Shown here: one piece after another, positions 9,435 through 49,028 of the stretch
How the letters are laid out: each line of letters starts with the position of its first letter
How positions within the stretch are numbered: the first letter of the stretch is position 1
From: Pseudomonas phage PAShipCat1
Sequence record: PP067092.1
Strand: one strand, 5' to 3'
DNA: 50,602 nucleotides
Program-made: the position numbers and the translations under genes
The notes under the pieces: generated by a model
Told to the model about the DNA's origin: nothing
The model's database searches: none
What the model saw: only the letters and a program-made list of their open reading frames with translations

Positions 9435-9510
9435 GCCGGTATGGCGCAACAGGGAGCGCTGCTGATTTGTAATCAGAGGGTTGCGGGTTCGACTCCTGCT
9501 GCCGGCACCA
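9435..9510 (+). tRNA. tRNA-Thr (anticodon UGU), phage-encoded, with encoded CCA
   Basis: Manual fold: acceptor GCCGGTA/TGCCGGC (one G-U). U8. D-arm GCGC-AACAGGGA-GCGC with G18G19. Anticodon arm GCTGA-TTTGTAA-TCAGA (U33, TGT, A37). 5-nt variable loop. T-arm GCGGG-TTCGACT-CCTGC (T54 T55 C56). Discriminator A, CCA. Confidence 0.8.
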
Positions 9511-33653: not shown

Positions 33654-33924
33654 GATGAGGACTCCTTACCTGTTTGGGAGTTCGCCATCTCTGCGACCAA
33701 GAAGAGGGAGGCGAACTGTACGCGGGTTGGCCGACCGGGGGTAAGGCTCCCGGCACACCCGAAGGTGTCCCACGCACAGCCCGCCATAACGCGGGCACAA
33801 AAAAACGCCCTGCGGCGCTGTGCGCCTTACCGATTCGGGCGGCCAAGCCCGACCGCTGAATTTGCAGCGGCAGGCGGAATATGGAATAAACGCCAGCATT
33901 CGTCAACGTTCATGAGGGGCTGGG

Positions 33925-41207: not shown

Positions 41208-41698
41208 ACCCCCTCCTTGCCGGGCGCGGCGGCCTTCCGAAGTGCGGCGTTCAATGCTCTTTCCATCGATTTGAACGGGGACTCGCCCGGTCGGAAAGCG
41301 TCAAGGGCAGCCACGATCATTTCGCCAGTAACCTTCAGCACGCTGTGCTGAGCCGAGCTGCCGGGCGCGGCGATAAACTTCCCATCTTCAAACGCCGTAG
41401 CCAATTCGGTCGCTACCCGCTGACACTGCTTCAAGTGGCCGACGAACAGTTCACGCGTTCCATCCCCCGCACGCACGCAGTATGGCCAGAAACCCTTCCC
41501 AGTTTTTTCTACGCGGTACCGCTCAAGCCCGAACACCTCCGGCACAACATCCGCCCTTGCGCGCAGTGCTGCGACTTCCTGCCTTAGCGCCTGGGCCTCG
41601 GCGGCTAGGGCGTCGTAGTCTGCATATCTGACGTACTCCCCGTGCTCATCCTCAGTAACCCCCCAGGTGTATTCGTTGAACCGCTCCACCTCACTCAT
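41204..41698 (-). CDS. hypothetical protein (164 aa) carrying one copy of the AQHSV motif/DNA repeat
   Basis: ORF track. ATGA overlaps. Contains GCACGCTGTGCTGAGCC (41358-41374). Confidence 0.5.
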   Translation of the reverse strand: MSEVERFNEYTWGVTEDEHGEYVRYADYDALAAEAQALRQEVAALRARADVVPEVFGLERYRVEKTGKGFWPYCVRAGDGTRELFVGHLKQCQRVATELATAFEDGKFIAAPGSSAQHSVLKVTGEMIVAALDAFRPGESPFKSMERALNAALRKAAAPGKEGV

Positions 41699-43371
41699 GA
41701 TCTACCTCCTTGCCGGGCGCGGTCCAGGCGCTCGATCTCGGCCAGGATCAAGGCGCCGGCACGCACGTAGTTGGAACGCGCGTCTCTCGGCTTCCACCAC
41801 TTCGTCACGAACGGCCAGATGGCGGGCGCTTCGTCATTGGCTCCGTTGAGGATGTATGCCGCTGCGGCGCGCGGAAGTTCGGCGGCGCAATAGAGGTCGT
41901 CGTGCTCCGGCGTCCAGCCCTCGGCGGTGATCTGCCGGCGGCGCTCTGCCTGCACGTCGATCCATGCCTGCGGCACCGAGTTGCCGGGCACGTCGGCGAG
42001 TATGGAAAGCAGTTGGCGCTCAGCCGTAATTCGGGTGTCGTGGTCCTTGTCGCTCATCATGTTGAGAAGCGGCTCAATCGGAACCAGCTTCCAGCCCTCC
42101 GGCACGCTGTGCTGAGCCTGGGCGGGCGCGGCGGCGAGCATGTGGGCTATATCGGCGGCTACCACACGACCATCAGCCACATCCTCCCGGACGTCGAAGT
42201 ATTCCTCGTCTTCGCAGACGTTCTCCAGGCATTCCGCCAGGTGCTCTATCTCGCATTGAGCGCGTGACAACAGAGTGCGGACTTTCTCCGGCACGCTGTG
42301 CTGAGCCTGGGCTACAGGGGCGGTGTAGAGCTTCGTGCCCGACGGTATGCCTTGCAGGTCGCGATAGAAATGAAGGCCGTTCCAGTCTTCACCCGGCACC
42401 CTCGCAACGGTCGCCACCGGCTCCTGCTTCTCCATCTCAGCGACCCTGGCCAGGGCGGCGTCGCGCTCCGCCGTGCGGCCCGAAACCAGACCATCAAGAC
42501 GAGCAATTTCCGCTTCCCGTTCTCTGATTTCGTTCTGTAATGCCCGGTACGTTTCCTGGCCGGAATCCATGTAATCGTTCTTGTGCTGGCGGAGCTGGGC
42601 TATCACCGCCCGCAGCTCCCCGACGATGCGCTCGTGCTGGGCGACGGTCATAAGCGGCCGGCGTTCGACGGTGTAGGAGCGTTCGAACTCCTCGCCTTTT
42701 CCTGGGTGCCAGAGACTCCAGCCAGTTTGCGGTCCTGCGGTGACGCGGTATTGCCACGCCACCACCTCCGGCCGCTCCGCCTCTGCCTGCTCTGGCTTGA
42801 GTGCTTCAGCGGGCGCTTCGTTGAACGCTTCAGCATGCGGGGCTAGGTTGAACGGGTCGAGGTCCGACGCCGGGGAGGGTTGCGGCGTACCGAGTAAATC
42901 CTCTCCCTGCTGGCTGATCTCCCAGAGCGCCGGGCTGCGCTGAACGCGATTGAGCAGCCCGAGCTGAGTCAGCAGGTCCAACCAGTGCCTGCCGATATCG
43001 ACGCCGCCAGACTCGAAGTCCTCGGCGCAATCGTTGAAGCGGCGAAGCTTGGTCAGCACCTTCTCCGCGAAAGGCGGTAGCGTCGGGGAGGGTTGCGCCA
43101 GGGCGGCGCTGGCTTGATCCGGCGTTACGAACCAGCCGCTGCCATCGCATTCGCGGCAGACCTCGCCGACACAGCCTTCGCCTGATCCGTCACATTCGGA
43201 ACATGCGTAACCGGTTGCCGGATCAGTTTCATATCCGCAGGCGCAAAGGTCGCCGGGCATCAGATCGTGTTCACCGCAATCCGGGCATCGGGTCGCGCAG
43301 GGCTTTGCATCTGCTGCACGCTCATCCCCGCCTGCCTGCTCTACCGATTCCTTGTTCAATTCCATGCTCAT
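41695..43371 (-). CDS. large early protein with N-terminal DnaJ-type CxxCxGxG zinc-finger cluster and conserved C-terminal alpha-helical domain
   Basis: CPDCGEH...CSECDGSGEGCVGEVCRECDGSGW. Two copies of AQAQHSVPE. C-terminal WIDVQAERRRQITAEGWTPEHDD...AIWPFVTKWWKPRDARSNYVRAGALILAEIERLDR (resembles the DUF550-type C-terminal domain of lambdoid early proteins, from memory). Start taken at ATG with ATGA overlap (MSMELNKE...). Confidence 0.6.
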   Translation of the reverse strand: MSMELNKESVEQAGGDERAADAKPCATRCPDCGEHDLMPGDLCACGYETDPATGYACSECDGSGEGCVGEVCRECDGSGWFVTPDQASAALAQPSPTLPPFAEKVLTKLRRFNDCAEDFESGGVDIGRHWLDLLTQLGLLNRVQRSPALWEISQQGEDLLGTPQPSPASDLDPFNLAPHAEAFNEAPAEALKPEQAEAERPEVVAWQYRVTAGPQTGWSLWHPGKGEEFERSYTVERRPLMTVAQHERIVGELRAVIAQLRQHKNDYMDSGQETYRALQNEIREREAEIARLDGLVSGRTAERDAALARVAEMEKQEPVATVARVPGEDWNGLHFYRDLQGIPSGTKLYTAPVAQAQHSVPEKVRTLLSRAQCEIEHLAECLENVCEDEEYFDVREDVADGRVVAADIAHMLAAAPAQAQHSVPEGWKLVPIEPLLNMMSDKDHDTRITAERQLLSILADVPGNSVPQAWIDVQAERRRQITAEGWTPEHDDLYCAAELPRAAAAYILNGANDEAPAIWPFVTKWWKPRDARSNYVRAGALILAEIERLDRARQGGRS

Positions 43372-47811: not shown

Positions 47812-48252
47812 TCAGTCGGTGTAGGCGATGTACTTGAACTGGCCTTTCTCTTCGTTGAAGTACTCGAATCGGCCGCCAAACGTCCCGATCACGGCTTTTT
47901 CAACCTCGGCGCGCGAAGTGCCGATGGGGAAAACTCCCTTCTTGATCATTGATGCGCCTGTGTGCGGCTCCCATGTCCAGTCGATTTTTGTTGGGTCAAG
48001 CACGCGAGGCTTGCTTTCCATGAATGCCCCATACCCACCTACATCGAGGGTAATCGTGTGAATCTCGCGTACGCAGAGCGGATCGTCCGCTGCGCGCCAA
48101 CCACAATCTGGACAACACATGTCAGCGCTCGTGTGAGCCGCACACGGCGGACTGATATGACAACTGCAATTCTCAACCTTTTCCAATTCGATCACGCCTT
48201 CGCAGCCGTCTCGGTTGCAGGTGGCGCCTTCCTCATATCCGAGTTCTTTCAT
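47812..48252 (-). CDS. hypothetical Cys-rich early protein (146 aa)
   Basis: ORF track. N-terminal CNRDGCEG...CSCH...CAAH...CCPDCGW cluster. Confidence 0.5.
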   Translation of the reverse strand: MKELGYEEGATCNRDGCEGVIELEKVENCSCHISPPCAAHTSADMCCPDCGWRAADDPLCVREIHTITLDVGGYGAFMESKPRVLDPTKIDWTWEPHTGASMIKKGVFPIGTSRAEVEKAVIGTFGGRFEYFNEEKGQFKYIAYTD

Positions 48253-48302
48253 GTCTCACCTCGCGTTCGCGTGCATGCGGCAGCGTTCCGAATCGCTGTC
48301 GT

Positions 48303-48326
48303 CATACAGGCGAAAAAATGCCCGGA
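48303..48326 (-). terminator. intrinsic terminator (3' end of candidate ncRNA / internal early-left terminator)
   Basis: On minus strand: GCCCGG-CAAGT-CCGGGC followed by ATTTTTTCG. Confidence 0.55.
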
Positions 48327-48331
48327 CTTGC

Positions 48332-48640
48332 CGGGCTAATGAGGGGTATGGGGATAGAGGGTGATCTGCGCTGCCGGCTCTACTTGAGCTACCTCCACCC
48401 TCCACAGGTGGTGCGCTAAGCATCAGCACTACTACTACGTCAGCGGCGTGCACACCGCTTATGCCTCGTTCGTGCCTACGCAATCCTTCACGCCCCGCCG
48501 GGCCGTTTACGGATTCACAGATGCGCTACAGCAGCGCAGATCACTCTCATTGGTAGGGTGGGGATGGCTCTAGTCTCCAGGCTTACGCGAACGCGCCCCG
48601 GTGCGCACTAGAGTCATCCCCATTAAAGGGTGGCGTCCTT
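48332..48640 (-). ncRNA. candidate structured noncoding element (RNA or MITE-like), ~300 bp with no credible ORF
   Basis: Perfect 13-bp (extendable to 18/19) long-range complement GTGATCTGCGCTG (48519-48531 region) / CAGCGCAGATCAC (48349-48361 region). 14-bp hairpin GGGGATGACTCTAG...CTAGAGCCATCCCC (48544-48611). Ends in the intrinsic terminator on minus strand. Confidence 0.35.
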
Positions 48641-48650
48641 GCCGGGGAAG

Positions 48651-49028
48651 TCAGTTGATGCGGCTGAAATCGACCGATTCGGAGTAGTAGCCGTTCGACT
48701 CGCCAAGCCAGCGGATTACGACGAAGCCTTTGGCTGTGGCCAGTCGGTAGAAGGTCCATGTGTAGCTTTCTACGTAATACCCAGGCGGCGCCGGGAAGTC
48801 TTCGCTACTGACGTCCTCGGCAACCACCAACGGCTGGCCAACAAGGTCGCTTGTGTCGCCCTCGATATCGTTAATCGAAACGCTCTCACAGCAGTCCTGC
48901 TGGTGATACATCCGAAACAGAGAGCCGTCTTCACATTCGAAATCGACAGAATCGCTGCCAGCTTCCAACCCGGTGATCTGCTTGATGGTCTTTCCGAGAA
49001 GATCAGAAATCGAAGCGTGCTTATACAT
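48651..49028 (-). CDS. hypothetical protein (125 aa)
   Basis: GGAGG SD + ATG MYKHASISDLLGKT... The track N-terminal extension has no SD. Confidence 0.5.
   Translation of the reverse strand: MYKHASISDLLGKTIKQITGLEAGSDSVDFECEDGSLFRMYHQQDCCESVSINDIEGDTSDLVGQPLVVAEDVSSEDFPAPPGYYVESYTWTFYRLATAKGFVVIRWLGESNGYYSESVDFSRIN

Follow-up and report, generated by a model that had tools for sequence, protein, structure and literature searches.

A conserved structured RNA and its exchangeable cassettes in the early region of Pseudomonas aeruginosa temperate phages

What occupies a stretch of a phage operon that has no recognizable gene? In the genome of Pseudomonas phage PAShipCat1 (PP067092.1), a first-pass annotation that was made from the letters alone singled out about 340 nt (48303-48640) as either a structured noncoding RNA with a terminator or an insertion that resembles a miniature inverted-repeat transposable element (MITE). 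We analyzed this segment within the whole stretch of 50,602 nucleotides, which we call the window, and compared it to related loci (denoted by L and a number). We find that the ~340 nt are two members of a system with a constant stalk, a swappable structured payload, a C-rich linker, and a terminator. The first member, unit A, is a hairpin with tRNA-like ends; the second, module B, is a conserved structured RNA of 193 nt. The locus encodes a strand-specific and structurally constrained RNA that is independent of its neighbors and undergoes cassette-like exchange.

Module B is a conserved structured RNA

On the minus strand, a 361-nt stretch folds into three elements: a hairpin, a 193-nt element, and a terminator (z = -3.33). 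The first-pass annotation had described a hairpin, a long-range pairing, and an intrinsic terminator, and all three are indeed present on the minus strand. Its sequences were correct, but its coordinates were shifted down by about 10-16 nt. We locate the hairpin arms at 48621-48608 and 48573-48560 (it had placed the hairpin at 48544-48611), the long-range arms are at 48548-48531 and 48374-48356 (not ~48517-48536 and ~48346-48364), and the terminator is at 48336-48313 (not 48303-48326). It had also treated the segment as a single structure. The structure is there, but it is divided between two separate RNA units, and both belong to families with a constant stem and a variable interior.

The long-range pairing closes module B, whose outer arms are GAGAGTGATCTGCGCTGC (48548-48531) and GCAGCGCAGATCACCCTCT (48374-48356). 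We defined the element from the RNAalifold consensus, pair counts, and the minimum free energy (MFE) structure, and we took the helix coordinates from the map of alignment columns to window coordinates:

48356..48548, minus strand: module B, structured RNA of 193 nt with six helices
48529-48546 with 48359-48376, extended to 48548/48356, minus strand: P1, the closing stem
48523-26 with 48413-16, minus strand: P2
48511-15 with 48482-86, minus strand: P3
48500-06 with 48490-95, minus strand: P3a
48472-81 with 48420-29, minus strand: P4 stack
48442-48459, minus strand: P4c, an invariant hairpin
48407-11 with 48395-99, minus strand: P5
48386-89 with 48377-80, minus strand: P6

The stalk P1, which is 18-22 bp long, closes a junction with P2, P5, and P6, and P2 in turn closes P3/P3a and the P4 stack. 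By itself, module B has an MFE of -95.5 kcal/mol (z = -5.32), and none of 200 shuffled sequences was as stable. The MFE structure accounts for 10.7% of the ensemble. The opposite strand folds at -79.1 kcal/mol, so the sense fold is more stable by 16 kcal/mol.

The homologs of module B comprise 18 distinct sequences from about five lineages (T1-T5), with identities down to ~75%. Their RNAalifold consensus is the same as the single-sequence MFE structure. It has 58 pairs in 10 helices, and 98.9% of the 1035 cells (one pair in one homolog) are paired. Changes on both sides of the pair are seen at 18 of the 58 pairs, as compared to 6.0±1.6 in column shuffles, and none of 500 shuffles reached the observed value; if the pairs are slid out of register, 0-3 both-side changes remain. 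By our own count, the pair table contains ~80 G.U cells and 4 A.C cells, which implies that the sense strand (the minus strand of the window) is the one under selection. In the most divergent homolog, L029, the whole outer stalk has a different sequence and is fully complementary (AAAGCAAUCUGGAAGGGCG / CGCCCUUCCAGAUUGCUUU). In the T4 lineage, the inner stalk, P3a, and P6 have been rewritten with compensation. The slid controls and the replaced stalks of L029 and T4 are the strongest structural evidence. A scan for pseudoknots or tertiary covariation gave no informative signal with 18 sequences in about five lineages.

Three parts of module B are invariant: the hairpin AAGCGGUGUGCACGCCGCUG and the single strands GUAGUA(G/A)U and UGGAGGU.

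The first-pass annotation had reported that the segment lacks a codon-biased open reading frame (ORF), and we agree: there is no conserved ORF, and the homologs differ by indels of 1, 2, and 3 nt, which excludes a coding role for module B. Of the checks that it had proposed, covariation analysis gave the compensatory changes at 18 pairs in 18 homologs, and a search of Rfam gave no matching family. Specifically, we found no match to Rfam 15 at gathering thresholds in 48253-48650, and a permissive scan of 48100-48800 (up to E = 10) returned nothing besides chance matches to microRNAs and small RNAs (E ≥ 0.43). Nor did Rfam find anything relevant in the homologous loci or in the other payload types that are described below. 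Module B is not a tRNA or tmRNA either, as it has no match from ARAGORN or to the tRNA models in Rfam. Overall, the reading of the segment as a structured noncoding RNA plus a terminator is strongly supported by covariation, by the strand-specific G.U pairs, and by an orientation that does not vary with respect to genes and terminators.

Module B is an optional cassette

We identified 59 phage records with conserved flanks for this slot, and 13 of them contain module B. Module B is also present in ~20 contigs of IMG/VR and in four contigs from metagenomes. A search of 185,579 species representative genomes gave a single match, in Pseudomonas huaxiensis, and there was no match among the plasmids of PLSDB. 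Module B belongs to a family of structured RNA that lacks an Rfam 15 match and was found only in Pseudomonas phage and prophage sequences. All 35 of 35 loci have one core of module B, and its arms occur just once in the window. It has the same orientation in at least five flank contexts, which have differing upstream and downstream genes.

In the window, the rest of the slot is arranged around module B as follows:

48622..48650, minus strand: 5' leader CUUCCCCGGCAAGGACGCCACCCUUUAAU of the slot; the flanks are conserved in the 59 phage records
48560..48621, minus strand: unit A, hairpin with tRNA-like ends and the instance of "frame A" in the window, from sequence and fold
48552..48559, minus strand: trailer ACCCUACC, 3' of unit A; of the two copies of the direct repeat around module B, the left one (alignment A1)
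48337..48355, minus strand: AUCCCCAUACCCCUCAUUA and the C-rich linker CCCCUCAUUA; the right copy of the direct repeat
48313..48336, minus strand: intrinsic terminator GCCCGG-CAAGU-CCGGGC-A-U6, from a terminator scan

Exactly module B is missing from phage LC3I3 and from five IMG/VR loci, which share the flanking genes and the upstream hairpin with the window; in them, CCCCACCCUAC is joined directly to CCCUCAUUAG. An identical unit A is found with and without module B, and so is the terminator of the slot. Module B is thus an optional cassette.

The direct repeat ACCCTACC lies on both sides of module B in BUCT566, PAE2, IME307, and L005. It is absent from the other contexts, namely the one downstream of the phage gene rsmM (described below) and those of the T4 and T5 lineages. 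The sequence AUCCCCAUACCCCUCAUUA is a degenerate second copy of the 3' arm of unit A plus its trailer (compare UAUCACCCUACCCCUCAUUAG in L005 and CAUACCCUACCCCUCUUAG in BUCT566), and ACCCUACC trails every unit of the frame-A slot, among them the hairpin upstream of module B and, in PAE2 and L045, a tRNA-like unit. The repeats are therefore boundaries of the slot, and unequal recombination or deletion between them accounts for the tandem units as well as for the empty site. Module B is neither junk nor a jumping element.

One locus is a chimera: in L020 (302-506), the flank on the left is that of an rsmM slot, the one on the right is that of a frame-A slot, and the crossover is inside module B. 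In this case, the RNA serves as a recombination joint between phage mosaics.

Two frames with exchangeable interiors

Frame A consists of GGGGAUG...CAUCCCC, followed by ACCCUACCCCUC(A)UUAG and a terminator, and is found in 88 IMG/VR stretches; these also contain the pattern GCCACCCTTYAATGGGGATG. Its interiors are 40-170 nt long and fall into about 10 unrelated sequence clusters. Many of them fold as multi-helix junctions, in which a hairpin with a 5-bp stem and a 7-nt loop is stacked on the closing stem.

In the window, unit A is a simple extended hairpin, in which the 7-bp stem GGGGAUG/CAUCCCC surrounds a 48-nt interior. Its arms are GGGGATGACTCTAG (48621-48608) and CTAGAGCCATCCCC (48573-48560), which pair over 7 bp and, after an A.C mismatch, over another 6 bp. 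In LC3I3, an A in unit A has changed to G, and the position remains paired, as G.U, on the minus strand. The leader CUUCCCCGGCAAGGACGCCACCCUUUAAU begins right after the stop codon of the upstream gene and ends with ...AAU before the first G of unit A (G+1), and ACCC directly follows the 3' arm, which resembles the acceptor end of a tRNA. At the sequence level, unit A passes a test for RNase P substrates. We required U(-1) and G(+1), a 3' tail of RCC, and a stem of ~7 bp that resembles an acceptor stem and stacks on another helix. In unit A, AAU precedes GGGGAUG, the stem stacks on another helix, and ACCC follows CAUCCCC. We rejected unit A as a small ORF (AUG GGG AUG...) since the lengths of its variants lack 3-nt periodicity.

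With its default settings, ARAGORN reported a single tRNA in the window, a tRNA-Thr (TGT) at 9435-9510 on the plus strand that is also found by Rfam, and nothing in loci L001-L004. At thresholds of 80%, it calls some variants of frame A degenerate cloverleaves, and the unit A of the window is not among them. Several of the frame-A units in loci L032-L112 are cloverleaf-like at these relaxed thresholds and have a hairpin that resembles a T arm and is stacked on the 7-bp stem.

Other sequences are found among the units of the frame-A slot. In PAE2 (L002:1381-1494) and L045 (4969-5025), a tRNA-like unit lies between the RNA units. It contains GGTTCGAATCC, ends in GCAGCACCA, and has CUU in its anticodon-like loop. 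It scores 29.9 bits against the Rfam tRNA model, is not called by ARAGORN, and has an insertion of ~45 nt after the D arm. L079, L075, L082, and L109 each have two frame-A units with an ORF of ~100 amino acids in between, which has its own ribosome-binding site (RBS), so the frame-A slot can accept protein-coding cassettes as well. Just 5' of unit A in the window, GGCAAGGACGCC (48629-48640, minus strand) folds into a small hairpin whose loop contains AAGGA. A related string, CCCGGCAAGGAGG, is the RBS at two gene junctions (41214-41224 and 41707-41717, minus strand), and because it recurs in this way, the leader of the slot may descend from the RBS of a gene junction.

The outer stalk of module B is itself a frame. 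Frame B, (A/G)GAGUGAUCUG...CAGAUCAC(U/C)C(U/C)C, was examined in 80 IMG/VR loci (L113-L192) that we had fetched with a phage homolog of CsrA. This homolog is RsmM, which is 60% identical to RsmA over 59 residues. A frame-B unit lies downstream of it in 76 of the 80 loci. These units are ~200 nt (170-230 nt) downstream of rsmM, on the same strand, and are followed by CCCCCUCUU and a terminator. The motif CCCCUC(A/U)UU plus a terminator is also retained downstream of rsmM, and the terminator 3' of module B in this context is a different one. The interiors of frame B are 100-250 nt long and are of about eight unrelated types; module B is present in five of the loci. The stalk of frame B has compensatory variants (GAUC/GAUC, GGCC/GGCC, and GGUC/GACC).

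When we used nhmmer to compare the interior of module B to the ~190 fetched loci, we found true copies of module B alone, so the other payloads are not detectable homologs of it. Rfam and nhmmer gave no relation among the payloads or to known RNAs. Across both slots there are at least 18 types of payload, of which module B is one.

By an expression slot we mean a leader, a constant stalk at which processing would occur, a C-rich linker, and a terminator. One of the two slots comes after early genes, and the other comes after rsmM. We tentatively propose that temperate phages of P. aeruginosa may carry hypervariable RNA loci, that is, conserved expression slots whose payloads, each of them structured and unrelated to the others, are swapped by recombination. 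A hypervariable slot for noncoding RNA next to a CsrA gene is not mentioned in the single paper on phage rsmM that we found (PMC7366521).

We made two minor observations near these frames. In some units of the rsmM slot (such as L124 and L126) and in the T4 locus L024, the 3' end of the stalk (CCGCU or UCGAU) can also pair with downstream sequence and form an alternative hairpin (GCUGC..GCAGC or GAUGC..GCAUC). By eye, changes in this hairpin seem to accompany changes in the stalk, a hint of alternative structures; the pattern does not hold in some recombinant frames. Also, the Proteo-phage-1 RNA of Rfam is found in L088 (9249-9328, minus strand, 45.8 bits) and L042 (2720-2801, minus strand, 33.7 bits). 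In some related phages, this RNA is found 1.5-2.8 kb downstream from the slot; it is absent from the window.

Genomic setting and annotation of the locus

The gap that lacks a conserved ORF is slightly longer than the segment that was first noticed: it spans 398 bp (48253-48650), and the genes that surround it are all on the minus strand. The adjacent genes are:

48651-49028, minus strand: DUF7448 gene
47812-48252, minus strand: next gene of the operon

The neighbors of the gap are PHROG families of no assigned role, DUF7448, and DUF551, and RecT is encoded downstream. In this region, the window shares 99.7-100% identity with YA3, MPK9, and Ab31, which are temperate phages of P. aeruginosa, and with their relatives. 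The counterparts in YA3, ORF42-ORF44, are in the left early/delayed-early region, downstream of a predicted PL promoter (PMC7326022). The locus is thus in the left early (PL-type) operon of a YA3/Ab31-like temperate phage of P. aeruginosa.

In the GenBank relatives, the region is either unannotated or carries the coding sequence (CDS) of a "hypothetical protein". No CDS is annotated here apart from an antisense ORF, which overlaps the terminator. In MPK9 (MPK9_00050; L193:912-1094), it lies across both the terminator and the beginning of the next gene, and phages HB2107-3I and P27 and the Flu_PA14 phages have equivalents. CDSs of this type are probably spurious calls over the noncoding RNA locus.

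A proposed mechanism and its alternatives

We favor, with moderate confidence, the view that this is a two-unit noncoding RNA locus on the minus strand that gives rise to a processed, trans-acting RNA, most likely a decoy or sponge for a protein. Units A and B would be transcribed as part of the early operon and would fold co-transcriptionally. Frame A might then be cut by RNase P-type cleavage between AAU and G at its 5' side and before ACCC at its 3' side, by analogy to the C4 RNA of phage P1, and frame B might be cut by RNase III-type cleavage in the long P1 duplex. Long duplexes such as this 18-22-bp stalk are plausible substrates for RNase III. The terminator would provide the 3' end whenever RNA polymerase is not antiterminated. 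Once freed, the compact RNA would act in trans, independently of the neighboring genes, and may sequester a protein in conflicts between phage and host or between phages. The hairpin AAGCGGUGUGCACGCCGCUG, GUAGUA(G/A)U, and UGGAGGU are candidates for the surfaces of contact. We favor a decoy that acts in trans because module B is independent of context, is optional, and is found in an early accessory region of extreme diversity. The decoy role is the weakest step of this scheme.

Several results count against this view. We found no match to a sigma-70 consensus promoter in scans of the slot in the window or of the rsmM context, which is why we propose co-transcription and excision. When we searched the rest of the window for antisense targets of the RNA, no match exceeded 12 nt (E ≥ 0.84). 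Because the homologs of module B are related (about five lineages with 75-100% identity), the cell counts well exceed the number of compensatory events that are independent. The processing signals of module B are also not universal. ACCC follows module B immediately in T2 variants and after UAUC in L005, and it is absent from T3-T5; the tail is missing in the rsmM, T4, and T5 contexts, and no terminator adjoins module B in the T4 context.

Could module B be a cis-acting element of the early operon instead? It might be punctuation for RNase III or RNase P, a 3' stabilizer, or a riboswitch-like or attenuator-like control, with no product that acts in trans. Module B is intergenic within an operon, its stalk is a long duplex, no promoter of its own was found, and in three contexts an intrinsic terminator follows it directly. 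An RBS and start codon lie 40-50 nt downstream of it in the T4 context, and the overall pattern resembles a single aptamer that is coupled to differing expression platforms. However, the terminator and the linker are unchanged where module B is missing, so they are not a dedicated platform, and the upstream and downstream genes differ in every context. Moreover, a processing site does not need a 150-nt interior that is selected for its structure and includes an invariant hairpin of 20 nt. So a purely cis-acting role seems unlikely, and we rejected a riboswitch or leader in particular, as there is no consistent family of downstream genes and the terminator is present without module B. For the same segment to be a miniature transposon, as the first-pass annotation had considered, P1 would have to be a pair of terminal inverted repeats of 18-20 bp and ACCCTACC would have to be an 8-bp target-site duplication. 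The precise empty site in LC3I3 and other loci would fit, as would the copies of ACCCTACC on both sides of module B in the four records listed above and the ends, which are inverted repeats with one mismatch. But a search for target-site duplications finds the direct repeat in the frame-A slot and not in the rsmM, T4, or T5 contexts, and this repeat is a boundary motif that also trails unit A and the tRNA-like unit. There is no sign of dispersed copies: each of the 35 loci has a single copy, the arms occur once in the window, and the element matches one of 185,579 genomes and no plasmids. The arms of L029 differ in sequence yet remain paired, so the ends evolve as a helix and not as sequence that a protein binds; and the excess of G.U over A.C pairs, along with an orientation that is always that of transcription, also counts against a transposon. 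We consider transposition scarcely credible.

The position of module B and other frame-B payloads in some prophages, 170-230 nt downstream of rsmM and on the same strand, suggests another potential function, as a sponge of the Rsm/Csr type that titrates RsmM or the host's RsmA or RsmN. Phage-borne rsmM genes have been documented (PMC7366521). However, module B has one conserved GGA, within UGGAGGU, and half of it is in helix P5; a GGA in the P5 loop is found in some lineages only. The other payloads have 3-7 GGA per ~200 nt, which is near the expectation from G+C content (this is a rough estimate from counts by eye), and the window does not encode a CsrA homolog. Such a sponge is improbable. 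A CRISPR-repeat-derived RNA that targets the type I-E system of P. aeruginosa would concern unit A and not module B. The repeat of this system is GUGUUCCCCACAUGCGUGGGGAUGAACCG (PMC5727412), and the leader plus the 5' arm of unit A reads CUUCCCC-(22 nt)-UGGGGAUGA (48608-48650, minus strand), while the 3' arm includes CAUCCCCAC (48560-48568, minus strand). A comparable two-part match arose in 24 of 20,000 shuffles, in what was a post hoc comparison, and RNA anti-CRISPRs against the I-E system do exist (PMC10651486). But the loop of the repeat-like hairpin would have 22 nt instead of 4 nt, 4-5 of the 8 nucleotides of the handle match, and the "spacer" would be a structured RNA of 40-170 nt. The known examples, RacrIE1 and RacrIE2, are near-full repeats of 29 nt (PMC10651486), and neither frame B nor module B has any similarity to the repeat. 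We give mimicry of a CRISPR repeat a low probability. Finally, several GenBank relatives annotate a "hypothetical protein" over the region, as might be expected if the segment were a decayed or frameshifted gene. That CDS is the antisense ORF across the terminator. Substitutions track base-pairing and not codons, indels are of 1, 2, and 3 nt, and the lengths of unit A variants do not follow multiples of three, so the probability of a decayed gene is close to nil.

We also rejected two kinds of RNA that the first-pass annotation had dismissed, and on the same grounds. A retron RNA (msr-msd) would account for a closing stem, but no reverse transcriptase is nearby, and the upstream gene in the rsmM context is csrA-like. 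For the RNA of a type III toxin-antitoxin system, there are no tandem repeats in the sequence or the fold, no repeat-type toxin system adjoins the segment, and no toxin family is found among the neighbors. More broadly, none of the proteins that neighbor the gap is a reverse transcriptase, a transposase, or a toxin.

Novelty and significance

In the literature that we searched (on related phages, rsmM, phage small RNAs, and structured phage RNAs), we found no description of module B or of the organization into frames and payloads. What is new is a family of structured phage RNA and a cassette architecture, which are in neither Rfam 15 nor the annotation of the GenBank relatives.

Few phage-encoded structured RNAs have known functions, and here a single intergenic gap led to a family that is supported by covariation. 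The wider pattern, with constant stems and unrelated interiors, extends to two conserved positions in more than 150 viral contigs, and one of these positions is beside a phage CsrA homolog. Diversity at a fixed early accessory site is typical of arms-race loci. If our proposal is correct, then these loci would be a repertoire of RNA effectors for counter-defense or host takeover, akin to the anti-defense islands or moron cassettes that encode proteins, and they would act in a clinically important host. Natural pairs of phages with and without module B (YA3/MPK9 vs. LC3I3) would allow direct tests of its function. As portable scaffolds, the conserved stalks might also be of use for the expression or processing of RNAs.

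Similarity to known RNAs

The put RNA of phage HK022 has ~70 nt and two stem-loops, lies just downstream of its promoter, and acts in cis as a processive antiterminator. Like put, module B is a structured RNA in a lambdoid-type early operon with terminators. Unlike put, it is several genes past the predicted PL promoter (according to the ORF table of YA3), is optional, and is found in a slot whose terminator is present regardless.

Species 1 and 2 of phage T4 (rnaC and rnaD) are stable RNAs from a tRNA cluster, which are co-transcribed with the tRNAs, matured by tRNA enzymes, and not known to have a function. The tRNA-like unit between unit A and module B in PAE2 and L045 recalls that arrangement. 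The phage and the host are unrelated, however, and the units here are hypervariable cassettes in the early operon of a temperate phage.

Module B shares several features with MITEs and with ERIC, Correia, and REP elements: it is short and noncoding, has inverted-repeat ends, varies in presence or absence, and has a direct repeat in one context. It differs from them in that it is single-copy, has strand-specific G.U pairs, and has ends that are kept as a helix. Similarly, RsmY, RsmZ, and CsrB are structured RNAs with an intrinsic terminator at the end, and in one context module B also adjoins a gene of the CsrA family. But module B lacks their array of GGA loops, and there is no CsrA gene in the window.

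The Racr RNAs (PMC10651486) are noncoding RNAs of phages from a variable early region, as is the locus described here, and the arms of unit A share strings of 9 nt and 7 nt with the I-E repeat. In contrast to Racr, unit A is not a near-complete repeat, and its geometry is permuted or expanded; module B is dissimilar.

Similar ends are seen in the C4 RNA of phages P1 and P7 (RF01695), another small structured phage RNA that is part of an operon transcript. In both, AU comes before the first G of a closing stem, and (A/U)CCC comes after the stem. In the Rfam consensus, GGCGGG...CCCGCC is preceded by AU and followed by ACCC, which matches the ends of unit A, where GGGGAUG...CAUCCCC is preceded by AAU and followed by ACCC. 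According to the account in PMC4919922, C4 is a substrate of RNase P (Hartmann 1995). However, C4 has no similarity to unit A or module B by sequence or by covariance model, and we found no target sites of the a1/b1 type for these units in the window. Module B is also more than twice as long as C4, has another architecture, and lacks the ACCC tail outside of the frame-A slot.

Separately, the window does encode a true C4 antisense RNA at 33704-33791 on the minus strand (68.6 bits). It is part of a module at 33704-33884 (minus strand) that also matches the Rfam models for the a1/b1 targets (57.5 bits) and isrK (55.2 bits). These matches imply that PAShipCat1 carries an RNA immunity module of the P1/P7 type.

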